Positions 9,694-57,880 of a DNA stretch of 64,000 nt are shown piece after piece. Below the pieces are notes generated by a model that saw only the letters and a program-made list of their open reading frames with translations, was not told where the DNA came from and made no database searches. Each line of letters opens with the position of its first letter. The stretch's first letter is position 1. The DNA lies in NCBI RefSeq assembly GCF_030013595.1, contig NZ_CP122768.1; one strand, written 5' to 3'. The stretch comes from Escherichia coli. GTDB lineage: Bacteria; Pseudomonadota; Gammaproteobacteria; Enterobacterales; Enterobacteriaceae. The translations under genes were made by a program, and so were the position numbers.

Positions 9694-10278
9694 TTACATT
9701 GTGTCTGGTTCTTCCGGCCACACAATATCCGGTGCTACTGATGTATCAACACGGTTCAGCAACACCCGATACTTTTTCCAGGCTTCCAGCAACGAGTTTT
9801 CTTCCTCCGTTGCGATCTCCAGATCTACAGCATCCTGAAGTGGCGCAATATGCTCACTGGCTACCTGCATCAGGCTGTTTTTTGTTTCTTCCGCCTCCCG
9901 GATCCGGAACAGTTTTTCTGCTTCTGCATCTTTCACCCAGGCTGTGCCGTTCCACTTCTGAAACTCCCCTTCCGGCGATAACCAGGTAACATTTTCCGGT
10001 AACGGACCGAGTTCAGAAATAAATAACGCGTCCCCTGACGCTACGTCATAAACCGTTTTACCCCGATGGTCTTCAACGAGATGCCACGATGTCTCATCAC
10101 TGTTGAAAACAGCCACGAAGCCTGCCGGAATATCTGGCGTTGCAATATCGGTACTGTTTGCTGGCAGACCTGTATGAGGTGGAATGTATGCATCACCTTC
10201 ACCAATAAATTCATTAGTTCCGGCCAGCAGATTATAAATTTTTATGGTCCGTGCTTGTTCACTCATTCTGAATGCCAT
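9694..10278 (-). CDS. tfa: tail fibre assembly protein Tfa
   Basis: 194-aa ORF, same length as lambda Tfa; overlaps stf stop. Confidence 0.9.
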
Positions 10279-12758
10279 TATGCAAGCCTCACAATATAGT
10301 TAAATGCGATGTTTTTGACGGTGTTTTCCGCGTTACCAGCAGCGTTAACGGTGATGGTGTGTCCATGTGAGCCAATCGCAACAGAGTGCGTATGAGCACC
10401 AATACCGACAGTATGTGCGTGAGCACCTGCAGATGCAGCTGTGCCGCTGACACTATGAGTGTGCGCTCCTGCAGCACTTGTATTCACACTGGCCGCAGAC
10501 ACTACCTTATGTACTGACCCATTTTGTGACCACTGGCTGACTGCTGATGCGCCTGTGACACTATGAGTATGGTTTCCGGCACTTGCGGCTGTACCGCTCA
10601 CACTGTGCGTATGCGCCCCGGTGTTATTCGTGGATTTAGTGCCGTAATCAAACGACGATGTGGTTTTCGTCCCCAAATCCGTACTGGATGCGCTGGCGCT
10701 GTGGGTGTGCGATTTAATGCCGTCCTGTTCCTGAGACAATACGGCCCGACCACTGGCAGGTTTGCCCTTAATCGTCCAGCCACGCATATCAGGGATCACG
10801 CCTGACGGATAAGCGGCTGCAAGTTTCGGGTATGCAGATTTGTCAAAAGTCTGCCCCTGCATCAGGGCATAACCAGACGGAACGGTATCTGATGGCCACG
10901 GGATTGGTGCACCGACTGGGTAGCTTTCTGGTGGAAGATTTTTCGAGGTATAAACTTCTGCCCAGTCTTCCTCAAAACCATAACCGTCTCTTGAAGAACG
11001 GTAGAACAGACCACCATTTCTGTAATGCGCCTTCATCTGCAGGGTCCGGCAACTTCCGACTCCGGTATAGAAGTTAACCAGAATATAGCTGTTGCCTGTC
11101 CGGGTGACATTGTATGCACCAGATTTAGCATTCCACGGAACGCCTCCCTCTGACTCTGCGTGCACACCAGACGATCCAAGAGCAAAAGCAGAGACATCTG
11201 CAGCGGACAGCCTGATGTCTGATTTCAATGCCTTACCATTCACCTTACGACCAGATGGAACCCGGTCATTTGCATTATCATTCACCGCTTTCACCGCCAT
11301 TGGTGTTGCCGCCAGCGATTCACTGTCACTGTCCGTGGCACTGCTGAGCTGTACCACCCCCTTTCTCGTCGTGCTCGCATCCTCTAGCGCCACGGCAGAT
11401 GCAATATCCTCTGCCCGTTTTGCTGCTGTCTCGGCACGCGTTGCTGCAGATTCCGACGTACTTTTGCTCTGAGCTGCCGCTGTCGCACTACCAGCTGCCT
11501 CTGTCGCCTTCGTGGATGCCGTCGTGGCACTGACCTTCGCCTCTGACGCCTGTCTTACCGCCTCATCTTTTGAAGCAGACGCCGATGATGCTGATGACGC
11601 CGCCGAACTGGCGGACGATGCGGCTGCCGTTTCTGAGGCTCCTGCGCGGGTTTCCGACGCTTTCGCATTCGTCTCAGATGTCTTCGCTGCGGAAGCAGAA
11701 CTCGCAGCTGCAGTGGCCTGTTCAGTGGCTTCGCCAGCCTTCGTTGTGGCTGTTGAAGCGGACGATGCAGCGCTTTCTGCCGATTTTCCGGCGGCAGCGG
11801 CACTGGCTACAGCCTCCCCTGCCTTCACTGATGCCTCACGGGCCGATGATGCAGCCGCGGTTTCTGAGCCTGCCGCAGCTGAGGCACTCTGTCCCGCTGC
11901 CGTTTCAGAAGACTTAGCGTTTGTCTCAGACGTCTTTGCCGCCTTCGCGGAATTTCCTGCCGCCGTTGCCGAGGAGGCTGCACTACTGGCACTCGAGGCT
12001 GCGCTCGTTTCTGATGATTTTGCCGCCTCTTTTGAAGCCGACGCATCCCTGGCTGAGGAGGCAGCTTCTGACGCTTTCGTGGTCGCGGTGGATGCAGAGG
12101 TGGCTGCTGATTGTTGTGACGCTGCAGCATTCGTTTCAGACGTTTTCGCGGCACCGGCACTGGTGGCCGCCGCGCTTTTTGAGGACTCTGCAGCGGCAGC
12201 ACTTTTTGAGGCTTCAGTGGCCTTTGTTGATGCCGTTCCTGCGCTGGAAGACGCTGACTGAGCCGACGAAGCGGCCTGTCCGGCTGACGTGCTGGCTGCA
12301 CGTGCTGAATCTGCAGCATCAGTCGCATGGGTTGCCGCCTCACGGGCAGATGTGCTGGCATCACTGGCTGACTTCTTCGCGGCTGCCGTGTTCTGTGCCA
12401 CCACGGACGCGTTACGCGCCACCTCTTCCACCATCAGTTCAAAACGGCGCAGTGCCTCCGGACGGGCATCATCCTCCGTCATGGCACCGAGAAAATCATT
12501 CAGCGTACCGGGTTGAGAATCTTCATACACGGTGATGGTCCCGGCATGCGAAGGCGGAAAACCTTCAACCAGCAGGGTGACACTGTACTGACCGTACTCA
12601 ACGTCCATGCTGTAACGCCCGGCTTCATCCGGATTTTCTGAGGCCAGCGTGTTCACCACCACCGTGGTACTGTTACGTTTTGCTTTCAGCTGGATTGTGC
12701 AGTTCTGTACCGGTTTTCCTGTGCCGTCTTTCAGTACACCTGAAATCTTTACTGCCAT
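10278..12758 (-). CDS. stf: side tail fibre protein Stf
   Basis: Starts [26 protein letters not shown] as lambda Stf; long Ala/Ser-rich shaft; C-terminal ...[31 protein letters not shown]. Confidence 0.88.
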
Positions 12759-12822
12759 ATTCACCCCACAAAAAAGCCCGCCTGAACCGGCGGGCTGTCA
12801 TAACACTGTGTTACCTGGCTAA

Positions 12823-28043: not shown

Positions 28044-31724
<3,681 letters not shown>

Positions 31725-31750
<26 letters not shown>

Positions 31751-32270
31751 TCAGCAACCCCGGTATCAGTTCATCCAGCGCGGCTGCTTTGTTCATGGCT
31801 TTGATGATATCCCGTTTCAGGAAATCAACATGTCGGTTTTCCAGTTCCGGAAAACGCCGCTGCACCGACAGGGGGATCCCGTCGAGAATACTGGCAATTT
31901 CACCTGCGATCCGCGACAGCACGAAAGTACAGAATGCGGTTTCCACCACTTCAGCTGAGTCTCTGGCATTCTTCAGTTCCTGTGCGTCGGCCTGCGCACG
32001 CGTAAGTCGATGGCGTTCGTACTCAATAGTCCCTGGCTGGAGATCTGCCTCGCTGGCCTGGCGCAGTTCTTCAACCTCCCGGCGCAGCTTTTCGTTCTCA
32101 ATTTCAGCATCCCTTTCGGCATACCATTTTATAACGGCGGCAGAGTCATAAAGCACCTCATTACCCTTGCCACCGCCTCGCAGAACGGGCATTCCCTGTT
32201 CCTGCCAGTTCTGAATGGTACGGATACTCGCACCGAAAATGTCAGCCAGCTGCTTTTTGTTGACTTCCAT
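31725..32270 (-). CDS. Nu1: terminase small subunit Nu1
   Basis: 181-aa ORF MEVNKKQLADIFGASIRTIQNWQEQGMPVLRGGGKGNEV..., lambda Nu1 with N-terminal wHTH; 26-bp overlap with A as in lambda. Confidence 0.92.
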
Positions 32271-32447
32271 TGTTCATTCCACGGCCAAAAACAGAGAAAG
32301 GAAACGACAAAGGCCCAAAAGTTCGTTTTCAGCACCTGTCGTTTCCTTTCTTTTCAGGGGGTATTTTAAATAGAAACATTAAGTTACGACGAAGAAGAAC
32401 GGAAACGCCTTAAACCGGAAAATTTTCATAAATAGCGAAAACCCGCG
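32271..32447 (-). promoter_or_regulatory. cosB region (terminase binding sites) between cosN and Nu1
   Basis: Reverse complement reads GGGCGGCGACCTCGCGGGTTTTCGCTATTTATGAAAATTTTCCGGTTTAAGGCG..., about 95 percent identical to the lambda left-end leader as I recall it. Confidence 0.75.
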
Positions 32448-32459
32448 AGGTCGCCGCCC
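32448..32459 (-). other. cosN 12-nt cohesive-end sequence GGGCGGCGACCT
   Basis: Plus strand AGGTCGCCGCCC at 32448..32459, the reverse complement of the lambda 5' overhang. Confidence 0.85.
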
Positions 32460-32863
32460 CGTGGCAGGCCACCCCACCGGAAGGACCCGCACAAATGAGA
32501 GTGATTATCACCATTGCTGATGAATAAATTGATGAAAATCATTAAAACGCCTTTCAGCAAGATAACGGCGACGGTCGTTGTTGCACTCCGTAACTCTGCG
32601 ACTAAGGTTAAAAGCATGGCCCTCTTTTGCCACCGGCAAATCTTCAATGGATTTCCCCTGCCGGTTTTTTATTTTCGTCGATGCATAACATTGCATTTAC
32701 ATCAATAGCGGCTATTGTCATTAGTATGTTGCATAAATGCATGGGTGGTATTGGCGGTCTTCGCCGGCCGGTTCTGTGTAGCTGGACCGTTTTTTTATTT
32801 CTCACATTACAGCAGCCCCTTAGAGTGAAGGGCTGCTGTAATGCCGCAATCTTTTTTAACATG

Positions 32864-32883
32864 AAAAAGGCCGCAGAGCGGCC
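32864..32883 (-). terminator. candidate rho-independent terminator for the int-cargo transcript
   Basis: Hairpin GGCCGC-AGA-GCGGCC (32869..32883) preceded on the plus strand by AAAAA, i.e. followed by a U-run on the minus strand; about 125 bp after the 146-aa ORF stop. Confidence 0.5.
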
Positions 32884-33008
32884 ATAAACACAAGTAAAAA
32901 TCAATAAGTTATATAATTATCAAAGACTTACAGACACACAAAAACACAGCCAACCACAACAAATAACAGGGATGTGGTCATTTTGTGGATCATATCGCCG
33001 CCATAAAT

Positions 33009-33446
33009 TTACTTAATAACAGTAACCACAGCCACAAGCACGGCCATCGCAGACAGGACAATACCTGTGAGTAACCAAGTCTGATTTGCAAATGATTTCT
33101 GAAGTTCAGTACGATGCTCAGCCATCTCAACTTTCAGAGACTGGCGTAAATCAGCCATCTCAGACTTCAGGGATTGGCGCGATTCTGCCATCTCAAGCCT
33201 CAACCCTTCGCGAATCTCCAGTACATCAGATTTGGTAGCAAAGGATTCGCTTCTTGTGGTGAGAGTAATCAGGTTGTTTTTGATTTCAGTCACATCACTT
33301 TCCAGGCAACTGACCCGCCGTTCAAGGTCGTCATTCATGCCATCACCTCCATCATTACCACTTCCTGTTACTTGGTTGTTGGATACATTATAGGCATTCT
33401 CTTTCTTTTTTCTGAACCGCGAAATATGTGCAACATTCTCTGCCAT
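33009..33446 (-). CDS. hypothetical coiled-coil protein with C-terminal transmembrane anchor
   Basis: ORF ...LEIREGLRLEMAESRQSLKSEMADLRQSLKVEMAEHRTELQKSFANQTWLLTGIVLSAMAVLVAVVTVIK; ATG shares one base with the upstream stop (TGATG); family not recognised. Confidence 0.55.
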   Translation of the reverse strand: MAENVAHISRFRKKKENAYNVSNNQVTGSGNDGGDGMNDDLERRVSCLESDVTEIKNNLITLTTRSESFATKSDVLEIREGLRLEMAESRQSLKSEMADLRQSLKVEMAEHRTELQKSFANQTWLLTGIVLSAMAVLVAVVTVIK

Positions 33447-33808
33447 CACTTCTCATCACCCTGCTTGCCTACCCAGTTCATAAAGGCCCGGGCCGAGTAA
33501 CGATGAACAAACCCACATCTGTTACAGGTAAGTCGGAATTCATAGTTATGGATATTTTCCCGATCATGTCCCTCATATCCCGGATACCCAGTAAATGGAC
33601 CGATGTAATCAAGCATAACAAAAGTGCCTAAATCACACTCCTCAGCAGTTTTCGGCTCAGGCCCCACCTCAACAATATTCGTCAAATACATGTACATATC
33701 CGTATCGCCACACGACAAACATTTTTCATTCGTAGACGACTCATTGAGAAAACGCGCAAAATTATCGAGCGTTGCCATTCTTTTAAGTTCATCTAAATGA
33801 AACTTCAC
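33446..33808 (-). CDS. hypothetical Cys-rich protein (two CxxC pairs), translationally coupled to int
   Basis: 120-aa ORF with CLSCGD and CNRCGF; GTG start 2 nt after the int stop, preceded by AGGAGG inside the int 3' end. Confidence 0.55.
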   Translation of the reverse strand: MKFHLDELKRMATLDNFARFLNESSTNEKCLSCGDTDMYMYLTNIVEVGPEPKTAEECDLGTFVMLDYIGPFTGYPGYEGHDRENIHNYEFRLTCNRCGFVHRYSARAFMNWVGKQGDEK

Positions 33809-33810
33809 TC

Positions 33811-34788
33811 TTAAGCACCTCCTAGTGGATTAAACCTCACCGCATCCTGCAGGTAATCCGGCGCAAGATGGGCATAAATCATCGTTGTCTGAATCTTTGC
33901 GTGCCCCAGAATTTTCTGGAGCGTCAGAATATTGCCGCCGTTCATCATGAAATGACTGGCGAAGGTATGGCGCAGCGCATGAACAGCCTGGCCGTCAGGA
34001 ACATCAGGTGCGACCGTTTTGATGACATCGCGAACCAATGGATAATCCAGCGTCGGAAACACCAGTTTCCCGCCCCGTATTTTGATCTTTTCAAACAGGC
34101 TTTCAGAAATAGGAACGGTACGGTTTTTGCTGTTCTTCGTTTTTGAAAAAGTGATTCGACAATGAAGAACACGGCGCTGCTCTAGTGCCGCTACCTCGCC
34201 CCATCGCGCCCCGGTCGACAGAAGGATTTCGACAGCCAGCCGTTCATCGGGATTTTCAGCCAGTGCATCCAGCAACTGAACACATTCAGACTTACTCAGA
34301 TATCCCATTTCGCGCTCGTTAACCTTCATTCCTTTAAGGCCTTGAACGGGGTTATCGTTAAGAAAATGGCCGGATGAGATGAGTGCGGTAAACATCGCGC
34401 TTAACGCCCCAATCTCTCGATTTATGGTGCTGGGCTGTATCCCCTGCTCTATCCTGGACACACGTAGCTCGGTGAGCATCGTTGTATTAAGTTTATGCAC
34501 GCACGGGTCATCCATTGCCTCACTCAAGCGCAGCAATTTAAGGCGCGTGTTATGCCCTGACTTCATTAGCTGGCCGTGGTATTTCCACCACAAGTCAATA
34601 AGCACTGACAGCGGGCGGCGATCAATGGAGTTTCCTTTCCACTCATTGTTATGCTGTTGCGCCAGCACCCACCGCTCATATAAAACTGCATCCGATTTCG
34701 TTTTAAATTTTTTGCGAATGCGTTTGCCTTTACGCCCCTCAGGACGCATGTCAAGAAGATACCCTCCCGGAATTGATTTTATGCTCAT
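33811..34788 (-). CDS. int: tyrosine integrase, P2 Int family
   Basis: Starts MSIKSIPGGYLLDMRPEGRKGKRIRKKFKTKSDAV (compare P2 Int MAIKKLDDGRYEVDIRPTGRNGKRIRRKF); catalytic ...HALRHTFASH... and ...TTMIYAHL... motifs. Confidence 0.9.
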   Translation of the reverse strand: MSIKSIPGGYLLDMRPEGRKGKRIRKKFKTKSDAVLYERWVLAQQHNNEWKGNSIDRRPLSVLIDLWWKYHGQLMKSGHNTRLKLLRLSEAMDDPCVHKLNTTMLTELRVSRIEQGIQPSTINREIGALSAMFTALISSGHFLNDNPVQGLKGMKVNEREMGYLSKSECVQLLDALAENPDERLAVEILLSTGARWGEVAALEQRRVLHCRITFSKTKNSKNRTVPISESLFEKIKIRGGKLVFPTLDYPLVRDVIKTVAPDVPDGQAVHALRHTFASHFMMNGGNILTLQKILGHAKIQTTMIYAHLAPDYLQDAVRFNPLGGA

Positions 34789-34837
34789 TCGTGAAGCCCC
34801 AGCGTTACAAGACCACCATGCCCCCAGCGTTCCATGA

Positions 34838-35149
34838 TTAGCCGGGCTGTGTGCCAGTCTTGCGGGATTTTTGAGAAGACGATGTGTTTTCTGGCCCATC
34901 AGGGGAGAGAGAAGGACTGATCTGCCCAGCAGCCTCATTTGTTTCGTTACTCATCAACCACGTAGTGTATTTTTTAAATTCCGGGTGCATTGTGATTTTC
35001 AGTAAAACCTCCGTTCCCACACCTCGAATACCAGTCTCGTATTGCTTAACCGTACCAACCGCAATACCTATTGAATCCGCGAACTTTGCCTGACTAAGCC
35101 CCTCAGATTCTCGAATTGCTTTTAGCTTCTTTGATATCTCTATTGACAT
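34838..35149 (-). CDS. C: immunity repressor C (P2 C family HTH)
   Basis: 103-aa ORF MSIEISKKLKAIRESEGLSQAKFADSIGIAVGTVKQYETG...HPEFKKYTTWLMSNE...GQISPSL, resembles P2 C; directly upstream of int on the same strand. Confidence 0.75.
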   Translation of the reverse strand: MSIEISKKLKAIRESEGLSQAKFADSIGIAVGTVKQYETGIRGVGTEVLLKITMHPEFKKYTTWLMSNETNEAAGQISPSLSPDGPENTSSSQKSRKTGTQPG

Positions 35150-35244
35150 GGTGTGCACCTGAATACTATATTGGTTATCAGTTGAGTACCACTTGACACT
35201 ACAAAGAGCCACAAATAGCACCAGATTGAATAGGTTATCACACC
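35150..35244. promoter_or_regulatory. divergent C / cox switch region with direct repeats
   Basis: 95-bp interval between divergent C and cox starts; AT(T/A)GGTTATCA at 35170..35181 and 35230..35241 flank a TTGACA at 35193..35198. Confidence 0.5.
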
Positions 35245-35523
35245 ATGGCAAAAGTCCTTAACACATACGAACAAGCGGATTTTGAGCGTTTGGCGGCGTT
35301 CTACCCATACCGTAATGAACATGGGCTACCGGTACTTGAAGAAAGCCTGGAGGATTATGCGAAACGCACAAATCAAAGCATTCTCGCTGTAAGAAGGCAG
35401 GCTGATAGATCGGTAATTCCCGTTACTCAAGAAGGAAGAAACACAAAACGCAAAGTAAATCTCTTCGCAATTTTCCTGAAAACCATCAGAAACGCAGAGA
35501 AATACGTGCAAATGACAAAATAA
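35245..35523 (+). CDS. cox: Cox/Apl-like excisionase-regulator (putative)
   Basis: 92-aa ORF first in the rightward early operon; central ...YAKRTNQSILAVRRQADRSVIPV... resembles the P2 Cox HTH segment. Confidence 0.55.
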   Translation: MAKVLNTYEQADFERLAAFYPYRNEHGLPVLEESLEDYAKRTNQSILAVRRQADRSVIPVTQEGRNTKRKVNLFAIFLKTIRNAEKYVQMTK

Positions 35524-35537
35524 CGAGGTGTCATTTT

Positions 35538-35876
35538 ATGCTGAAGCAACGCCGTAATTTTTGTACCGGAACAGAACGCCACGCTAACCGTTTCACTACC
35601 AGTGCATCACGCAGCAACATCCGCTACAGCCTGAGTGATACACACGCAACGCCGGATGGCTACCCAGTAAAACAAATCGGCGAGCACGCCTGGCTGATTG
35701 AGAAAGCTGGAATCGTGATCCACAAATGCCCACGCAATCCGTTTACCGGAAACCGCATTTTTGCACTGAGCTGTGGCGACAATCAGTTCGGGCAGGATTT
35801 CACATTATACGAAGCACTTCGCACGGTTGATCGTCTGCTTCGCGGGCAAAGTTTTATTAAACAGGCTGATTTATAA
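35538..35876 (+). CDS. hypothetical early-region protein
   Basis: 112-aa ORF in the early operon after cox; no family recognised. Confidence 0.45.
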   Translation: MLKQRRNFCTGTERHANRFTTSASRSNIRYSLSDTHATPDGYPVKQIGEHAWLIEKAGIVIHKCPRNPFTGNRIFALSCGDNQFGQDFTLYEALRTVDRLLRGQSFIKQADL

Positions 35877-35886
35877 CAGGTGCTTT

Positions 35887-36174
35887 ATGACCAAAGACCA
35901 TGCACAAGGTGTATTTATTCGTTTTATTGATTTTCGCGGTGAACTGTTATTACGTGCATCCGCTATTGACGGAGTGACTCCGGCGGGTAAAAACGGAGCC
36001 GACGAAGCCACTTACGTTTATCTGAACGGCACGCGACTGCTTGTGGAACTTCCGTACCAGACCGTACGAGAAATCATCAGCGAAGCTGAAAAGGCACGCC
36101 AGGTTAATGGCGATGAACCCTATATCGAAATTATTTGTATGGATTCAGAAGCTGAAATACAGAAAGCAGATTAA
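35887..36174 (+). CDS. hypothetical early-region protein
   Basis: 95-aa ORF from ATG 35887 (MTKDHAQGVFIRFIDFRGELLL...), abutting the previous ORF. Confidence 0.45.
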   Translation: MTKDHAQGVFIRFIDFRGELLLRASAIDGVTPAGKNGADEATYVYLNGTRLLVELPYQTVREIISEAEKARQVNGDEPYIEIICMDSEAEIQKAD

Positions 36175-36182
36175 AGGGCGTT

Positions 36183-36428
36183 GTGATGGGCAAAGAATAT
36201 AAAACTCTCATTAACAAAGCACTTGAGCGTTTTTATTTTCGCTTAAGTGCATCAGGCGCTCATGCTGAACGTGCGGCCCGTGACTCATTGACCAGAGCAA
36301 TCCGAAGTCTGTATGACGTGGCTTTTTACGCTGATGATCTGGATGCACTTAACGAACTTTCCGAGCTGATCTGTGCCGCAGAATGCGGGGAACATATTGA
36401 ACCGTATAAGCTGGGAAATATCGCATGA
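36183..36428 (+). CDS. hypothetical early-region protein
   Basis: 81-aa ORF MMGKEYKTLINKALERFYFRL...; stop overlaps the next start (ATGA). Confidence 0.45.
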   Translation: MMGKEYKTLINKALERFYFRLSASGAHAERAARDSLTRAIRSLYDVAFYADDLDALNELSELICAAECGEHIEPYKLGNIA

Positions 36429-36538
36429 GTATATTTATTTCATGGCTTGTTCTGATTATTTCGGTGGCCTGCGCCATTGGGATTATGCGAATTATTAATT
36501 CAGTAAAAAAGATTGAACGCTTTTTCACTGAAGAATAA
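36425..36538 (+). CDS. small hydrophobic peptide (37 aa), putative
   Basis: MSIFISWLVLIISVACAIGIMRIINSVKKIERFFTEE; single predicted TM helix; ATGA coupling to the upstream ORF; below the ORF-track cutoff. Confidence 0.3.
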   Translation: MSIFISWLVLIISVACAIGIMRIINSVKKIERFFTEE

Positions 36539-40482: not shown

Positions 40483-41442
40483 ATGAAAATTTGTATCGAC
40501 GACGGCTCCACCAACATCAAGCTGGCATGGACTGAGAACGGCGAACGCCGCAACGCCATCAGCCCGAACAGCTTCAAGTCGGAATGGTCTGCGCCGTTCG
40601 GCGGCACGCAGCCCGCGAACTACATGCTTGATGGCGTGCGCTATGGTTTTGATCCGGTCAGCGATCGCTTTGTCCAGACGACCGACACGCAATACCAGTA
40701 CAGCGATGTAAATGTCATTGCCATTCATCACGCGCTGGTCAAATCAGGCATCACGCCACAGGAGGTGGATGTGGTTGTCACCCTGCCACTGAGCGAGTAT
40801 TTCGACACAAACGCACAGCCGGACATGGCCAACATCAACCGCAAAAAAGCGAACGTTATGCGCCCGGTGGAGTACCAGAACGGCGAAGCATTCACTATCC
40901 GTAACGTGCGGGTTATGCCTGAATCCATTCCGGCTGGCTTTAAAGCACTGGCTGACATGAGTCCGTTTGAATCCCTGCTGATTGTGGATTTAGGTGGAAC
41001 CACGCTGGATGTGGCAAAGGTTCAGGGACAACTGGCAGGTATCAGCCAGGTGTTTTGCGATCCACACGTAGGCGTTTCCCTGATGGCCGATGCAGTACTG
41101 TCGGTGATGGCCACTAACGGTATGCGTACCAGTCACCACATCGCCAATACCATTATCGAACATCGCCATGATGAAGCCTGGCTGCGCCAGCACATCCACA
41201 ATGACGCGCATTACGCCAGCCTGATGGCGGTTATTCGTGAAAAGGAAGAAACACTGAAACAACGCGTGATCCGCGCGCTGGCGGGTTTTTCGGGTTACGG
41301 GCGGGTGATGGTTGTCGGTGGCGGGGCGGAGATTGTGGCACCCGCTATCCGCGAAGCCTGCGGAGTTAATGCGACTTTCATCGCGGACGGGGTGCCACAG
41401 TTTGCTCTGGTTAATGGGCTGTACGCAATGGACAAGGAGTAA
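40483..41442 (+). CDS. parM: ParM/StbA-family actin-like ATPase
   Basis: 319-aa ORF MKICIDDGSTNIKLAW...NSFKSEW...YSDVNVIAIHHAL...VMPESIPAG...IVDLGGTTLD...VVGGGAE...LVNG, alignable throughout with R1/R100 ParM/StbA. Confidence 0.85.
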   Translation: MKICIDDGSTNIKLAWTENGERRNAISPNSFKSEWSAPFGGTQPANYMLDGVRYGFDPVSDRFVQTTDTQYQYSDVNVIAIHHALVKSGITPQEVDVVVTLPLSEYFDTNAQPDMANINRKKANVMRPVEYQNGEAFTIRNVRVMPESIPAGFKALADMSPFESLLIVDLGGTTLDVAKVQGQLAGISQVFCDPHVGVSLMADAVLSVMATNGMRTSHHIANTIIEHRHDEAWLRQHIHNDAHYASLMAVIREKEETLKQRVIRALAGFSGYGRVMVVGGGAEIVAPAIREACGVNATFIADGVPQFALVNGLYAMDKE

Positions 41443-52767: not shown

Positions 52768-53664
52768 ATGCCTGCCGTTGACCTTTCACAGTTACCGGAC
52801 CCCGCCATCATCGCGGAGCCTGACTTTGAGGCAATTCTGGCTGACACAAAGGCCATGATGATTGCGTCCTATCCCGCCGAACAGCGTGAAGCCGTTTCCG
52901 CCGCGCTGGAGCTGGAATCGGAACCCCTTAACGTTATCGCTCAAACCATGTCGTTTCGTGAAATGCTGTTACGCCAGCGGGTCAATGAGGGTGCACGCGC
53001 CTGCATGCTAAGCCACAGCGCCGGGACAGACCTGGACAACCTCGCGGGCAATATGAACACAAAGCGCCTGGTTATCACTCCGGCAACGGATACCACCGAC
53101 GCAGTGATGGAAAGTGACACCTCGCTGAGACTACGGGCGCAACGGGCATATGACGGTCTGAGTGTTGCTGGCCCGTCAGGTGCATACGAGTATTTTGCAC
53201 GCAGCGCCAGCGGTCTGGTACGCGATGCGCGGGCCATCAGCCCGTCTCCGGCCAACGTGACGGTTTCCATCCTGTCCACTGAGGGCGACGGCACAGCAAC
53301 GGAGGCATTGCTTAATACCGTTCGCGCCGTTCTGAATGCAGAGGATACCCGCCCGGTGGCCGACCGCCTGACCGTACAGAGTGCCAGAATCGTGACATGG
53401 CGGCTGAATGCAAAACTGTACTTTTACCCCGGCCCGGAATCCGAACCTATTCTGGCCGCGGCGGAATCGTCGTTCAGGAAGTGGCTGTCTGAGCAGGGGC
53501 TTATCGGTCAGGATGTGGCGTTGTCAGCCATTGCTGCCGCACTGCATGTGCACGGTGTGCAACGCGTGGAGATAATCGAACCCACACAAAATATGGCCAT
53601 CAGCGACATACAGGCGGCGCGCTGTGAGTCATTCACCATCAGCGAAGGTGGGCGTAATGAGTAA
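52768..53664 (+). CDS. J: baseplate protein, P2 gpJ family
   Basis: 298-aa ORF at the P2 J position. Confidence 0.9.
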   Translation: MPAVDLSQLPDPAIIAEPDFEAILADTKAMMIASYPAEQREAVSAALELESEPLNVIAQTMSFREMLLRQRVNEGARACMLSHSAGTDLDNLAGNMNTKRLVITPATDTTDAVMESDTSLRLRAQRAYDGLSVAGPSGAYEYFARSASGLVRDARAISPSPANVTVSILSTEGDGTATEALLNTVRAVLNAEDTRPVADRLTVQSARIVTWRLNAKLYFYPGPESEPILAAAESSFRKWLSEQGLIGQDVALSAIAAALHVHGVQRVEIIEPTQNMAISDIQAARCESFTISEGGRNE

Positions 53665-54187
53665 TTCACTGTTACCGCCATCAGCCAGCAATTTCATGCG
53701 TTGTGCCGAAGCTGTCGGAACGCGCATTACAGACATTCCGGTAGACCTCAACACGCTGTGGTCGCCGGACACCTGCCCGGTGCATCTGCTGCCTTATCTC
53801 GCCTGGGCATTTTCCGTTGACCGCTGGGATCGCAACTGGCCGGAAGAGACAAAGCGACAGGTGATTCGTGATGCATGGCTGATACACCGACACAAAGGGA
53901 CCATCAGCGCACTGCGCCGGGCCATTGAGCCGCTGGGATACCTCATTCGTGTGTCTGAGTGGTGGGAGTTCGGCGGAGAACCGGGAACATTTACCGTTGA
54001 AGTCGGCACGCTGGACAGTGGCGTGACGGAGGAAATGTATCTGGAAATGGAGCGGTTGATTGCTGATGCCCGCCCGGTCAGCCGCCACATGACAGGGCTG
54101 AATATCATTCAGGAGATCCCGGGGGATATTTTCGCGGCGGCAGCAACTTACGACGGTGAAGTCATTACCATTTATCCGGACGATTAA
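53657..54187 (+). CDS. I: baseplate/tail protein, P2 gpI family
   Basis: Start MSNSLLPPSASNF... aligns with the P2 I N-terminus; ...CPVHLLPYLAWAFSVDRWD...ADARPVSRHM...NIIQEIPGDIFAA... conserved. Confidence 0.85.
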   Translation: MSNSLLPPSASNFMRCAEAVGTRITDIPVDLNTLWSPDTCPVHLLPYLAWAFSVDRWDRNWPEETKRQVIRDAWLIHRHKGTISALRRAIEPLGYLIRVSEWWEFGGEPGTFTVEVGTLDSGVTEEMYLEMERLIADARPVSRHMTGLNIIQEIPGDIFAAAATYDGEVITIYPDD

Positions 54188-54189
54188 GC

Positions 54190-56781
54190 ATGAGTACCAC
54201 AACACGAAAATTTAAAACCATTATCACTGATACTGGTGCCAAAAAATTAGCTCAGGCAGCCGCGCCAGATGGTAATCCTGTCCGCCTGACTCACATGGCC
54301 GTGGGCGACGGTGGCGGCACGTTGCCCACACCAGACAGTAAGCAGACCCGTCTGGTGCATGAGGTGTGGCGACATACTGTTAATCGCGTCATCCTGGACG
54401 CAACACATCAGAACCGCATTATTGCGGAGCTGGTTATTCCTCCTGAAACGGGCGGATTCTGGATCCGGGAAATTGGTGTATTTGATGAGCACGGCGATTT
54501 GATCGCGGTGGGCAATACTGCGGAAAGTTACAAGCCAGCCGTTGCCGAAGGATCCGGACGTGTACAAACATTTCGCACCATTCTGACCGTATCCAGCACT
54601 GCCACCGTGGCGCTTACCGTGGATAACACCATGGTTATGGCCACAGTGGATTACGTGAATGACAAACTGAAAGAACATGAACAGTCACGACGTCACCCGG
54701 ACGCCTCGCTGACCGCAAAAGGCTTTGTTCAACTCAGTAGCGCCACCAACAGCACGTCTGAAACACTGGCCGCAACGCCGAAAGCGGTAAAGGCCGCGTA
54801 TGACCTTGCTAACGGGAAATATACCGCACAGGACGCCACCATAGCGCGAAAAGGCCTTGTCCAGCTCAGTAGTGCCACCAACAGCACGTCTGAAACGCTC
54901 GCCGCAACGCCGAAAGCGGTAAAGGCAGCATATGACCTTGCTAACGGGAAATACACTGCACAGGACGCCACCACAACGCGAAAAGGCCTTGTTCAGCTCA
55001 GTAGCGCCACCAACAGTGATTCTGAAACGCTTGCGGCAACGCCAAAGGCGGTAAAGGCAGCATATGACCTTGCTAACGGGAAATACACTGCACAGGACGC
55101 CACCACAGCGCGAAAAGGTCTTGTCCAGCTCAGTAGCGCCACCAACAGCACGTCTGAAGCATTGGCCGCAACACCGAAAGCGGTAAAGGCCGCGTATGAC
55201 CTTGCTAACGGGAAATACACTGCACAGGACGCCACCACAGCGCGAAAAGGTCTTGTCCAGCTCAGTAGCGTCACCAACAGCGATTCTGAAACGCTTGCGG
55301 CAACGCCAAAGGCGGTAAAGGCCGCGTATAACCTTGCTAACGGGAAATACACTGCACAGGATGCCACTACAGCGCGAAAAGGTCTTGTCCAGCTCAGTAG
55401 CGTCACCAACAGTGATTCTGAAACGCTGGCCGCAACATCAAAAGCGGTGAAGTCTGCCTATGACAATGCTGAAAAACGCCTTCAGAAAGATCAGAACGGT
55501 GCGGATATTCCGGGAAAGGATACCTTCACGAAAAATATCGGTGCCTGTCGTGCTTATAGCGGCGCTTTGAGCACTGAAGCCGGAAACTGGACAACCGCTC
55601 AGTTTATTGAATGGCTGGATTCCCGTGGTGCATTTAATCATCCGTACTGGATGTGCAAAGGCTCATGGTCATATGCAAATAACAAAATCATTACGGATAC
55701 CGGATGTGGTGATATCCACCTGGCTGGTTGTGTCGTCGAGGTCATGGGAACTAAATCTGCAATCACTATCCGAGTAACCACGCCGACAACATCAAGTGGT
55801 GGCGGTACAACCAGCGCACAATTCACTTACATTAATCATGGGGGCGGCTACTTCCCCGGCTGGCGTCGTGACTGGAATCGTCAGGGCGACTCAATGACCG
55901 GAACGATTAATCAGGATGGCGGAAGCCAGAATGCCTATATGTCTACGGCCTTATGTTCAGGCACCAGAGGCGGCAAAAAATATCTCAGAAAGTTTCGTGG
56001 TGGAGAAGGAGATACTATCTGGCATGAAACAGTACAGGGCGGGGTAATTCGCTGGGCGACAGGAAACTATGACGCTCAGGAAGAATTATCACTCAGCTCC
56101 GCTTATGGTCTCCGTTCAAGAGGTGAGATTACATCACTCAGTGCTAATGGTCTGCGCATTGCTTATGGCAATTATGGATTCTTTATCAGGAATGATGGCG
56201 GCAGCACATATTTAATGCTGACGGCCTCTGGCGATAAATTTGGGACATGGAACGGCTTAAGACCGCTGACTATCAATAACGCCAATGGCGGAGTGTCAAT
56301 GGGGCATGGCCTGAGTGTTACAGGTGATATTGTCTCAAGTACCAAAGTACGTGCCGGTAGCGGGAAAAAGTTCACGGTCAGCAGCAGCAATACATCCACG
56401 AAGGAAGCCGCATTCAATTTGTGGGGAAACGCAAGTCGTCCGGTGGTGGCTGAATTAGGTGATGATGCAGGCTGGCATTTTTACAGTCAGAGAAATACAG
56501 ATAACAGCATCACTTTTGCTGTTAACGGGCAGGTATCACCATCTAACTATGGCAACTTTGATTCACGCTATGTCCGGGATATTAGACTTGGTGGCGCGTC
56601 ATCCTATAAACCAGCAAATAACGGGACAACATGGACGCATCAGGCTCCATCTGGTTGCGCATATACCGGGATTATCGTTCAGGATACAGGCTCAAACTCT
56701 GCCGATAATATTGGTGGTGTTTATTACAGACCAATTCAAAAAAATATTAATGGTACATGGTATAACGTATCGAGTGTTTGA
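54190..56781 (+). CDS. H: tail fibre protein, P2 gpH-like, with internal tandem repeats
   Basis: 863-aa ORF; N-terminal 170 aa like P2 H; five and a half tandem copies of a 44-aa unit; Gly-rich distal domain. Confidence 0.9.
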   Translation: MSTTTRKFKTIITDTGAKKLAQAAAPDGNPVRLTHMAVGDGGGTLPTPDSKQTRLVHEVWRHTVNRVILDATHQNRIIAELVIPPETGGFWIREIGVFDEHGDLIAVGNTAESYKPAVAEGSGRVQTFRTILTVSSTATVALTVDNTMVMATVDYVNDKLKEHEQSRRHPDASLTAKGFVQLSSATNSTSETLAATPKAVKAAYDLANGKYTAQDATIARKGLVQLSSATNSTSETLAATPKAVKAAYDLANGKYTAQDATTTRKGLVQLSSATNSDSETLAATPKAVKAAYDLANGKYTAQDATTARKGLVQLSSATNSTSEALAATPKAVKAAYDLANGKYTAQDATTARKGLVQLSSVTNSDSETLAATPKAVKAAYNLANGKYTAQDATTARKGLVQLSSVTNSDSETLAATSKAVKSAYDNAEKRLQKDQNGADIPGKDTFTKNIGACRAYSGALSTEAGNWTTAQFIEWLDSRGAFNHPYWMCKGSWSYANNKIITDTGCGDIHLAGCVVEVMGTKSAITIRVTTPTTSSGGGTTSAQFTYINHGGGYFPGWRRDWNRQGDSMTGTINQDGGSQNAYMSTALCSGTRGGKKYLRKFRGGEGDTIWHETVQGGVIRWATGNYDAQEELSLSSAYGLRSRGEITSLSANGLRIAYGNYGFFIRNDGGSTYLMLTASGDKFGTWNGLRPLTINNANGGVSMGHGLSVTGDIVSSTKVRAGSGKKFTVSSSNTSTKEAAFNLWGNASRPVVAELGDDAGWHFYSQRNTDNSITFAVNGQVSPSNYGNFDSRYVRDIRLGGASSYKPANNGTTWTHQAPSGCAYTGIIVQDTGSNSADNIGGVYYRPIQKNINGTWYNVSSV
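54718..55455 (+). repeat. tandem array of a 132-bp (44-codon) unit inside tail fibre gene H
   Basis: Protein repeats KGLVQLSSATNSTSETLAATPKAVKAAYDLANGKYTAQDATTAR x5 plus a diverged partial sixth; nucleotide copies over 90 percent identical. Confidence 0.85.
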
Positions 56782-57317
56782 TTATGATGCATTTAAAAAA
56801 TATAAAACCGGGCAATCCAAAAACAAAAGAACAGTACCTGTTAACTAAAAACTCCGGCGTTGTCTGGTTATTCGCTGAAGATGGTAAAAACTGGTATGAG
56901 GAACAAAAGAACTTTCAGCCAGACACCATAAAGATTGCATATGATGAAAATAATGTCATATGCGACGTGCAAACGGATGTAACTGCAATTTGCCCGGAAG
57001 GAAAAAGTGTTGTCGAGTTGCCTAATATTACAGCAAACCGACGCGCTGATATTTCAGGTAACTGGATGTTTAAAGATGGCTCAGTCATTAAACGTGTGTA
57101 TACCGAAGAAGAGCAACGCTTGCAGGCTGAAAACCAGAAACAAAGGTTATTACAGCAGGCCAGAGAAAAAACGCAGTTCTGGCAGACCCAGCTTGCATTA
57201 GGGATTATCAGTGATTCAGATAAGCAACAACTGATGCGCTGGATGCGGTACGTGCAACAAGTTGAGACCACTGATACCACTGAATTACCCGTTACGTTCC
57301 CTGATCAACCAGAATAA
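56778..57317 (+). CDS. G: tail fibre assembly protein, P2 gpG-like
   Basis: 179-aa ORF overlapping the H stop; C-terminal ...QQLMRWMRYVQQVETTDTTELPVTFPDQP tail fibre chaperone pattern. Confidence 0.85.
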   Translation: MIMMHLKNIKPGNPKTKEQYLLTKNSGVVWLFAEDGKNWYEEQKNFQPDTIKIAYDENNVICDVQTDVTAICPEGKSVVELPNITANRRADISGNWMFKDGSVIKRVYTEEEQRLQAENQKQRLLQQAREKTQFWQTQLALGIISDSDKQQLMRWMRYVQQVETTDTTELPVTFPDQPE

Positions 57318-57320
57318 ACG

Positions 57321-57345
57321 AAAGGCCCGAATATCGGGCCTTATC
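57321..57345. terminator. bidirectional terminator hairpin between convergent G and U
   Basis: AAAGGCCCGA-ATAT-CGGGCCTT with an A-rich 5' flank and T-rich 3' flank. Confidence 0.6.
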
Positions 57346-57385
57346 GTTATTTCTGTTTATCTAACTATTTGTGATTTGCGTTAAA

Positions 57386-57880
57386 TCAGAACAGTCCCTT
57401 AACAGAACTGACCGCACTGTTAAGGGATGACGCCACCTTATCTTTGAAGCCGGACAGCATATCGCTGAACGATGAGGATTGCAGGCGCTCCCGCAAATCC
57501 TCATCACAGCGTTCAAGGGTCAGTGAAAATTCTATCTTTTTCGCCTTACCGTAGCGATCAAACTCGGAACGGGTCGTATTCGTTTCAGTCAGCACATACA
57601 TGCCGTAAATCTGCCCGACACCATCAATCAGAGGCCAGGGGCGTCCTGTATATGCCTGCGTGGTCAGCAACGAAAGCGACACTTCGCCACCTGTAATTTC
57701 AGGATAAAGCACGCCGGAAAGCACAATGCGATCATCACCTGCACCTATATACTGCCAGCTTGCTGAACGGTTAACGCGTTCATTTTTTACATGCCGCCAG
57801 CTTTTGTTTTGCTGTAACTGCTGATGCGGCAGTGTGCGCAGCTCAAAAACAAACATGCCGTAGATCATCATCATGGCCAT
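57386..57880 (-). CDS. U: tail protein, P2 gpU family
   Basis: ...MFVFELRTLPHQQLQQNKSWRHVKNERVNR...WPLIDGVGQIYGMYV... aligns with P2 U (MMVLGLFVFQLRTVPYQQLQQ...). Confidence 0.85.
   Translation of the reverse strand: MAMMMIYGMFVFELRTLPHQQLQQNKSWRHVKNERVNRSASWQYIGAGDDRIVLSGVLYPEITGGEVSLSLLTTQAYTGRPWPLIDGVGQIYGMYVLTETNTTRSEFDRYGKAKKIEFSLTLERCDEDLRERLQSSSFSDMLSGFKDKVASSLNSAVSSVKGLF

Follow-up and report, generated by a model that had tools for sequence, protein, structure and literature searches.

A Pf2 repeat array of variable copy number in the tail fibre gene of a P88-like prophage of Escherichia coli

Introduction

The Phage_fiber_2 family (PF03406, 'Pf2') was described from the side tail fibre Stf of lambda and from P2 gpH as a repeat of ~40-44 residues that occurs in tail-fibre proteins of enterobacterial phages. 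Ghosh et al. (2012, PMC3368898) listed Pf2 among the conserved fibre domains, with its structure unknown, and also called the contribution of the unit unknown; in the literature we found no later paper settling that contribution, no paper describing a structure of the Pf2 unit and no report specifically on P2-like fibres that vary in the number of Pf2 copies. The closest described case of length variation is that of the EHEC side tail fibres, in which collagen-like or coiled-coil segments differ between alleles by whole multiples of a structural period (3 or 7 residues) and in which the length-variable proteins also carry Pf2 (PMC3368898).

In P2 and P88, gpH is encoded between gpI and a gpG-type assembly gene and starts with a PF12571 domain, immediately behind which, at aa ~174-177, come the Pf2 units. 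The reference phages checked have few units (1+1 in P2, 2+1 in P88 and 3+1 in vB_YpM_46). P88 also encodes a DNA invertase, together with an alternative end for the fibre, between G and U, and its host range maps to the C-terminal aa 716-746 of 764 (PMC5285337). The fibre protein S/S' of phage Mu (gp49; PDB 5yvq, 8ju3 and 9ki1) has one Pf2 motif at aa ~110-150 followed by 'RLAKDRNGADIP', and its distal part is switched by inversion of the G segment; the Mu cryo-EM paper mentions just the N-terminus as the part of the fibre that was built. Finally, relaxed recombination between phages and prophages provides a route by which the short, diverged homologies in stf/tfa regions can be exchanged (PMC3945230).

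Here we describe a Pf2 array in a gpH-type gene within a 64,000-nucleotide stretch of E. coli DNA (contig NZ_CP122768.1), hereafter called the window. The array does not differ in kind from PF03406: it is a known fibre repeat and no new kind of element, and is most likely a commonplace module that sets shaft length and is prone to recombination. Its copy number differs between closely related prophages, and for one allele the junction could be mapped.

Results

The repeat lies in a gpH-type gene of a P88-like prophage

The gene order around the repeat is that of P2 (V-W-J-I-H-G), as seen from Pfam matches for J, I and G (Table 1) and from the annotation of a 99.8% identical RefSeq locus; RefSeq records at this identity label the gene 'tail fiber protein'. 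The late region of the prophage is collinear as a whole with that of phage P88 (Xuanwuvirus, Peduoviridae), with the sheath-to-gpU block lying on the opposite strand in both. The J-I-H-G order, the combination of PF12571 with PF03406 and the P88 collinearity therefore agree with the first-pass annotation, which had named the gene as tail fibre gene H. Two apparent irregularities of the region were dropped: the minus-strand sheath-to-gpU block, considered as an inversion anomaly, has the identical order in P88, and gene D, considered as possibly truncated, shows no disruption against P88 D over the ~870 nt that precede the end of the window, the two differing by a single 9-nt in-frame change of length.

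The fibre gene is not part of an invertible segment of the Mu G, P1 C or P88 type, for the window has neither the invertase nor the crossover sites: gpU, on the minus strand, comes immediately after gpG, no invertase ORF lies beside the fibre gene, and no gix/cix-type site occurs within 9 mismatches of the 26-nt consensus between positions 54000 and 57500. The alternative fibre end that P88 has between G and U is likewise absent. No Chi sites were found near the array.

Table 1. Coordinates of the fibre gene, its repeat units and related features in the window
Feature	Coordinates	Strand	Evidence
Baseplate protein gpJ	52768..53664	+	PF04865
Baseplate protein gpI	53624..54187	+	PF09684 Tail_P2_I, E 1e-50
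Tail-fibre gene (gpH type), 863 aa	54190..56781	+	PF12571 aa 6-153, PF03406 x6, PF21446 aa 631-695
N-terminal virion-proximal part: Phage_tail_fib domain and lead-in to unit 1	54190..54717	+	PF12571, E 7e-54
Repeat unit 1 (KGFVQLSS...ATIAR)	54718..54849	+	
Repeat unit 2	54850..54981	+	
Repeat unit 3; unit positions 27-50 equal unit 6 sequence (crossover interval of the CH468 allele)	54982..55113	+	
Repeat unit 4	55114..55245	+	
Repeat unit 5	55246..55377	+	
Terminal truncated unit 6, first ~31 codons, merging into the distal fibre	55378..55470	+	Unit HMM match positions 1-31
Distal fibre part, Mu S'/S-like, with T4 gp34-type trimerisation domain; presumed receptor-binding	55462..56781	+	PDB sequence search
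Tail-fibre assembly protein (gpG type)	56778..57317	+	PF02413 Caudo_TAP, E 2.5e-33
Antisense ORF, 81 aa, by-product of the repeat	54729..54974	-	
Antisense ORF, 138 aa, by-product of the repeat	54993..55409	-	
Single diverged motif copy in Stf, the lambda-like side tail fibre (ORF 10278..12764, -)	11268..11363	-	Unit HMM, i-E 1e-14

The array consists of five full Pf2 units and a truncated sixth

Tandem Repeats Finder returned a single array at 54717-55464 with a period of 132, 5.7 copies, 89% matches, no indels and a score of 1125, and a repeat search placed the copies in register at an exact spacing of 132 nt. The tandem 132-bp repeat reported for this gene at first pass is thus real, and translation confirmed the 44-residue peptide that had been given for its unit. 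Read in the frame of the fibre gene from aa 177, the array holds five complete 44-codon units (54718-55377) followed by only the first ~29-31 codons of a sixth. The nucleotide identity of more than 90% that had been claimed for the units holds when full units are compared with their own consensus (90.9-96.2%) and is slightly generous for pairs of them (85.6-93.2%, n = 5). Units of the array diverge from one another by 7-14%, no two neighbours are identical, and the exact DNA runs that units have in common measure 19-60 nt.

Pfam assigned the array to PF03406 with six matches (E 3e-114, 372.6 bits against a gathering cut-off of 22), and both this score and the location in a tail-fibre protein place it in that family. 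A TPR_20 match in the array (24.4 bits, under the cut-off of 25) was rejected as noise from Ala-rich helices. A PDB sequence search with two units matched only Mu tail fibre S chains (5yvq, 8ju3 and 9ki1), and an AlphaFold2 single-chain model of a 3.66-unit construct was an unusable all-helix guess (mean pLDDT 45, pTM 0.30). With five full units and one partial unit, the window fibre exceeds P2, P88 and vB_YpM_46 in copy number and falls below some other fibre proteins in the database, in which arrays of 11-12 copies exist.

Codon differences between units comprise 86 synonymous versus 30 non-synonymous changes in the plus frame, and the variable columns are distributed 6/3/18 over the three codon positions, so that 18 of 27 lie at third positions. 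The units are therefore kept alike at the protein level by purifying selection, most of their differences being silent. The long antisense ORFs across the array, for which Pfam gave no family above the cut-off, are repeat artefacts, as had been supposed, since the unit differences are mostly synonymous in the opposite frame and concentrated at its third positions.

The distal part of the fibre is Mu-like and is joined to the array through the truncated unit

The truncated unit 6 continues 'NAEKRLQKDQNGADIP', matching Mu tail fibre S; the continuation of the terminal unit is 'SAYDNAEKRLQKDQNGADIP' in the window fibre versus 'VMDETNKK' in P2/P88. In the PDB sequence search, fibre aa 425-578 aligned to 8ju3 residues 177-332 (S'), aa 641-862 to 5yvq residues 266-503 (S) and aa 641-715 to T4 gp34. 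The window fibre thus differs from P2/P88 gpH in having more units and a Mu-S/S'-like distal part; from Mu, which carries the motif once and switches its distal part, it differs by a multiplied motif and a distal part that is fixed. Based on the structural homology to Mu S and T4 gp34 and on P88 genetics, the window gpH would be a trimeric, baseplate-attached receptor-binding fibre.

At least four different continuations follow the unit core (P2/P88, Mu-like, other fibres and Stf), and BLAST alignments of partial homologues have their endpoints at the array or within it (1-747, 1-1133, 229-1275 and 1288-2592). The mosaic evolution of tail fibres has long been known, and the ~27 conserved residues at the start of the unit, which serve as a joint to varied distal modules in different phages, fit this pattern.

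The motif copy in Stf shares little homology with the array

The single motif copy that the first-pass annotation had seen in the lambda-like Stf is present; it rests on our own unit HMM and on translation, as the Pfam PF03406 model did not list the copy in the window's Stf at E <= 0.01. The suggestion that this motif offers usable homology for fibre exchange between H and Stf was not supported. The Stf copy is 67-76% identical to the H units at the nucleotide level, with a longest in-register exact run of 8 nt and a longest common word anywhere of 12 nt; furthermore, the two genes lie on opposite strands, so that an intrachromosomal exchange would invert about 43 kb. Judged from these alignments, the H-Stf homology in the window is insufficient for homologous exchange to be efficient. 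The exchange of De Paepe et al. was measured at <=12% divergence (PMC3945230), and the H-Stf pair, at 24-33% divergence with common words of <=12 nt, lies outside that range.

Related prophages carry the array at different copy numbers

Complete E. coli genomes were searched with a flank-only query, and matches with array flanks >=96.5% identical were counted. Among the matches listed, at least 29 prophages carried arrays of 219, 351, 483, 615 or 747 bp, corresponding to 1.66-5.66 units (5.66 units, n = 13; 4.66, n = 7; 3.66, n = 7; 2.66 and 1.66, n = 1 each), and all lengths fit 132n+87 bp. The five lengths were read base by base and all were in frame on ~99% identical prophage flanks; across alleles of differing copy number the N-terminal part (54190-54717) was 98.7-99.2% identical. 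A second lineage, with 87.5% identical flanks, varied as well, from 2.66 to 4.66 units among the matches listed. Repeat number therefore varies across related prophages in steps of 132 bp, the outcome of the comparison that the first-pass annotation had proposed as its check. At the protein level, clusters with 3+1, 4+1 and 5+1 units were present among the best 120 matches, and an 819-aa variant was found on 461 contigs.

In the closest pair, C3 (1.66 units) and HCP5S3_I2 (3.66 units), the flanks showed only 2/3000, 5/528, 2/1317 and 13/2500 mismatches. The 747-bp array was found in at least 13 genomes with pigs, cattle, deer and humans as hosts, and a base-by-base comparison showed that the array of ETEC1749 is identical to that of the window. 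The CH468 allele equals the window array minus exactly three units: its units 1 and 2 (0 mismatches) are followed by a hybrid of units 3 and 6 with one clean switch point, which falls inside the one 24-nt stretch at which those two units match exactly. Compared with ETEC1749, CH468 and Z142-6 had 0/528 mismatches 5' of the array and 8/1317 and 42/1317 mismatches, respectively, 3' of it.

Discussion

Probably, the Pf2 modules form the proximal shaft of the fibre of this P88-like prophage, and whole units are gained or lost by misaligned exchange or slippage. The fibre would have three parts, namely a conserved N-terminal domain that docks on the baseplate, then the five full units and the truncated one, and finally the Mu-S-like distal region, carrying receptor specificity, into which the truncated unit merges. 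Because exact runs of 19-60 nt are still common to the units, misaligned homologous exchange or slippage between them is possible and would add or remove whole 132-bp units with the reading frame kept, which would account for the natural allelic series of 1.66-5.66 units seen on otherwise near-identical fibres. The enzymes would presumably be those of RecA-dependent exchange or of replication slippage, and each unit would lengthen the trimeric shaft or alter its flexibility, and hence change its reach, not the identity of the receptor. On plasmids, De Paepe et al. (2014) found a 10^4-fold drop in recombination at 4% divergence (PMC3945230), and a unit divergence of 7-14% should strongly depress RecA-mediated exchange. 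Thus, events that change unit number may be infrequent, and transfer between prophages, not repeated origin, may explain the spread of some alleles.

Differences in copy number could in principle be produced by collapse or expansion during assembly, the true number being constant, because short-read assembly of a ~750-bp tandem repeat can go wrong and many of the protein clusters derive from draft assemblies. We regard this as extremely improbable: the five lengths come from assemblies described as complete genomes, each is exactly 132n+87 bp and in frame, variants recur in independent genomes (at least seven with 4.66 units, at least seven with 3.66 units, and 461 contigs for the 819-aa protein), and the 7-14% divergence permits unique placement of units, the CH468 hybrid having a clean single switch. 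It is also very unlikely that the array is a programmed, high-frequency contingency switch tuning fibre length within one lysogen population. The in-frame allelic series on near-identical backgrounds and the arrays of up to 11-12 copies in other fibres could be read in this way; however, units of 132 bp that are 7-14% diverged and have no identical neighbours predict low rates, unlike simple-sequence contingency loci, whose short units switch frame or promoter, whereas here the frame is always kept. At least 13 genomes retain the 747-bp array length, the ETEC1749 array being base-identical to the window's, and the window lacks an invertase or other dedicated enzyme beside the gene, as well as a gix-like site. 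Somewhat less doubtful, yet still unlikely in our estimation, is a selected length-tuning cassette in which the thickness of the host O-antigen or capsule would set the optimal reach of the fibre; the array DNA would then be kept just similar enough to go on generating new lengths, and populations of prophages and phages would maintain the series of otherwise identical fibres, with 1.66-5.66 units in this group and as many as a dozen in others.

A different function is possible, if tentative: the array may be a recombination adapter, a shared in-frame joint at which unrelated phages swap distal receptor-binding modules, with copy number a neutral by-product of misaligned exchanges that would itself leave the fibre unaffected. 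Several observations are consistent with such a role, among them the different continuations after the same ~27-aa core (P2/P88, Mu S, window H, Stf and others), the matches to fibre genes of other phages and prophages that start or stop at the array, and the CH468 and Z142-6 alleles, which equal ETEC1749 5' of the array and differ from it 3', as expected from exchange between two alleles. In addition, a Qin-like Stf in ETEC1720 has 2+1 units with 77-84% DNA identity to the window array and a common 29-nt exact word. Copy number, however, varies also between alleles with near-perfect flanks (C3 and HCP5S3_I2), and the strong protein-level conservation of every unit argues for a functional part and not a spare linker. 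This role is compatible with that of a shaft module, the explanation that we prefer.

The locus reveals no new mechanism, and its practical value is modest. Like the EHEC segments it yields alleles that differ by whole structural units, the unit here being a domain-sized 44 residues (132 bp) versus a period of 3 or 7 residues. For annotation and typing, some caution is warranted, as prophages that are otherwise identical differ in the length of this gene by steps of 132 bp, and long spurious antisense ORFs arise from the repeat. For the biology of Pf2 fibres, these prophages supply a natural series in which the baseplate-proximal end is constant, the receptor-binding end nearly so, and the number of full Pf2 units ranges from one to five; this allelic series would allow a direct test of what a Pf2 unit contributes, for example in terms of length per unit, flexibility or adsorption through the O-antigen.

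Repeat number in gene H of related prophages

The number of 132-bp (44-codon) units in H, the tail-fibre gene of the P2-type prophage, varied from 1.66 to 5.66 on near-identical flanks when the comparison across relatives proposed by the first-pass annotation, which had suspected copy-number change, was run; its main prediction was thereby confirmed. When 5,426 complete E. coli genomes were searched by BLAST with a full-length query, the spans of the matches differed by multiples of 132 bp, and five alleles were fetched and read: those of strains ETEC1749 (5.66 units, the array identical to that of the window), Z142-6 (4.66), HCP5S3_I2 (3.66), CH468 (2.66) and C3 (1.66), all in frame. Identity of these alleles to the window was 98.1-99.3% in the upstream flanks, 98.7-99.2% in the 5' part of H and 96.8-100% in its 3' part. 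C3 and HCP5S3_I2 differed by two units, yet their flank mismatches numbered just 2/3000, 5/528, 2/1317 and 13/2500. A small census used as its query just the two 400-nt stretches that flank the array; in addition, among the best 120 protein clusters, 58 had 3+1 units, 56 had 4+1 and 6 had 5+1, the query itself being extra.

Array length in the census, by flank identity, for genomes among the matches listed
Flank identity	Array span	Units	Genomes
>=96.5% (29 genomes)	747 bp	5.66	13
>=96.5% (29 genomes)	615 bp	4.66	7
>=96.5% (29 genomes)	483 bp	3.66	7
>=96.5% (29 genomes)	351 bp	2.66	1
>=96.5% (29 genomes)	219 bp	1.66	1
87.5-87.8% (31 genomes)	483 bp	3.66	27
87.5-87.8% (31 genomes)	351 bp	2.66	3
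87.5-87.8% (31 genomes)	615 bp	4.66	1

Structure and coding constraint of the array

Tandem Repeats Finder returned one array, and a repeat search placed its copies exactly 132 nt apart. Beginning at position 54718 (aa 177 in the H frame), the array comprises five complete units and a sixth cut to its first ~29-31 codons. The earlier description of this array was correct in period and copy number, and its figure of over 90% identity corresponds to the 90.9-96.2% nucleotide identity of units to their own consensus; pairwise, the full units were 85.6-93.2% identical, with in-register exact runs of 19-60 nt. Codon differences among the five full units were 86 synonymous versus 30 non-synonymous in the plus frame, in which third codon positions held 18 of the 27 variable columns, and other frames scored worse; by this codon pattern, the units are constrained protein-coding modules. 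The antisense ORFs within the array, already regarded as by-products of the repeat, bear out that reading, as they gave periodic peptides and no family match above cut-off.

Coordinates of the array and other features in the window
Feature	Position	Strand	Remarks
Gene H ORF	54190..56781	+	863 aa, contains the array
Tandem array in H	54717..55464		period 132, 5.7 copies, 89% matches, 0 indels, score 1125
Antisense ORFs in array	54729..54974 and 54993..55409	-	periodic peptide when translated
Distal half of H	55462-56781	+	
Gene G and gpU	56778-57880		directly adjoining, gpU on opposite strand to G
Stf	10278..12764	-	PF08400 and Collar domains; Tfa next
Single motif copy in Stf	11363..11268	-	diverged copy of the H unit motif
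Antisense ORFs over Stf	11092-12535	+	several, 126-249 aa
Large terminase subunit, lambda-type	29825-31750	-	split: 30422..31750 (442 aa) and 29825..30382 (185 aa)
Nu1	31725..32270	-	lambda-like late region begins here
Left end of P2-like prophage	~32864		about 600 bp beyond Nu1
Integrase, P2-like prophage	33811..34938	-	
ParM-type gene	40483-41442	+	PF06406, PF21523

Identity of gene H

Pfam searches matched PF03406 (Phage_fiber_2, hereafter Pf2) to H six times (E 3e-114), together with the tail-collar fibre N-terminal domain PF12571 at aa 6-153 and the T4 gp34 trimerisation domain PF21446 at aa 631-695. The gene is preceded by gpJ and gpI ORFs and followed by a Caudo_TAP fibre assembly ORF, and in ETEC1749 the annotation of the 99.8% identical locus is that of a P2-family late region. 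Phage P88 (Xuanwuvirus, Peduoviridae) is collinear with the whole late region; the sheath-tube-E-T-U block lies on the opposite strand in P88 also, and the arrangement is therefore normal for the genus. Between G and U, however, P88 has a DNA invertase, an alternative fibre end and a further assembly gene; the window prophage has none of these, gpU directly adjoining G, and no gix-like sites were found in 54000-57500. The host-range switch of P88 is absent from this prophage.

In a PDB sequence search, H aa 425-578 aligned closely with Mu S' (8ju3), aa 641-862 with Mu S (5yvq) and aa 641-715 with T4 gp34. The distal half is a mosaic of the Mu G-segment fibre proteins S' and S with a T4 gp34-type trimerisation domain, such that a fixed gene H joins pieces that Mu expresses alternately. 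Mu S has a single motif copy followed by the continuation 'RL.KD.NGADIP', as found after the truncated sixth unit of H.

Origin of the differences in unit number

The CH468 array consists of window units 1 and 2 (0 mismatches) followed by a hybrid that follows unit 3 to approximately position 26 and unit 6 from approximately position 51, the switch falling within positions 27-50, a 24-nt identical stretch that is the longest exact match of units 3 and 6. Read from sequence, this junction is what a misaligned exchange guided by homology and removing exactly 396 bp would leave, and it would be compatible with either RecA-dependent unequal exchange or replication slippage. Hybrid units occur in other alleles too, for example as the first unit of C3. 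Relative to ETEC1749, CH468 and Z142-6 both had 0/528 mismatches 5' of the array, but 8/1317 and 42/1317, respectively, 3' of it; some events may thus reflect recombination between two distinct fibre alleles rather than deletion within a single one. Because units diverge by 7-14%, such events should be infrequent (De Paepe 2014, PMC3945230).

Sharing of the motif between fibres

The first-pass annotation had also proposed that the motif copy in Stf, the side tail fibre of the lambda-like prophage, offers homology for fibre exchange with H. This copy was only 67-76% identical to H units over ~90-110 nt of DNA, with a longest in-register exact run of 8 nt and a longest common word anywhere of 12 nt, and the two genes lie on opposite strands; the comparison thus gives no support to the proposed exchange between the two prophages, the pair falling far outside the range measured for homologous or 'relaxed' recombination (PMC3945230). 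A lambdoid Stf adjoining the pinQ invertase in a Qin-like prophage of E. coli ETEC1720 (L010, 1974-4937) carries 2+1 units of the 44-aa type, 77-84% identical in DNA to the H array and with a 29-nt exact word in common; thus, lambdoid and P2-type fibres do share repeat arrays in other genomes. Furthermore, a conserved unit core of ~27 aa has at least 4 different continuations across fibres, and homology of other phage fibre genes to H begins or ends at the array. Exchange at the shared motif would accordingly be a general idea that survives in altered form, though not for this H-Stf pair. Long antisense ORFs also overlie aa ~120-460 of Stf, a low-complexity stretch rich in Ala and Ser, and, like those in the H array, are probably composition artefacts.

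Prophage boundaries and other genes

The junction of the lambda-like and P2-like prophages was found in 0 of 5,426 complete RefSeq E. coli genomes, with no record covering at least 80% of 31500-36500. The ETEC1749 relative, flanked by pheL and raiA, carries another integrase, and the P2-like element may have inserted beside or within the lambda-like prophage. The nuclease domain in the 442-aa terminase ORF ends at position 124 of 294; the split suggests a frameshift or stop, and the lambda-like prophage may therefore be defective. Just 3' of replication gene A, the P2-like prophage carries a ParM-type actin-like plasmid segregation gene, which in the ETEC1749 relative is followed by a partitioning/stability gene, a pairing that hints at a plasmid-like maintenance option.

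Distribution and possible role of the units

The H array is not unusual: P2 gpH (AF063097) has 1+1 units, the P88 fibre 2+1 and that of Yersinia phage vB_YpM_46 3+1, and the unit profile matched 4,471 representative proteins at E<=1e-3 among 1.84 billion, some with 11-12 motif copies in which 44- and 62-aa units alternate, and giant proteins with up to 23 matched stretches. In two proteins, P0121 and P0122, the N-terminal domains are unlike gpH and the 44-aa and 62-aa units form a 106-aa super-repeat, the 62-aa unit including 'APSSHTHPWNQITGVPTASLTA'. Pf2 was already listed as a conserved prophage-fibre domain by Ghosh et al. (2012, PMC3368898), who reported that little is known of its structure or function, that the Pf2 region of a related protein is globular in rotary-shadowing EM, and that adjacent collagen and coiled-coil segments change length by whole structural periods. 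A predicted structure model of Pf2 units reached a pLDDT of 45, too low for use. Since the array has the baseplate-proximal domain on one side and the receptor-binding distal part on the other, P88 host range maps to the far C-terminus (aa 716-746; PMC5285337) and the Pf2 region of a related protein looks globular in EM, we infer that each unit would make the trimeric shaft longer or more flexible. The array was correctly observed, and both its repeat family and the type of gene that carries it are known; the one useful outcome is the natural series of alleles with 1 to 5 units, with which the role of the Pf2 unit could be tested directly.
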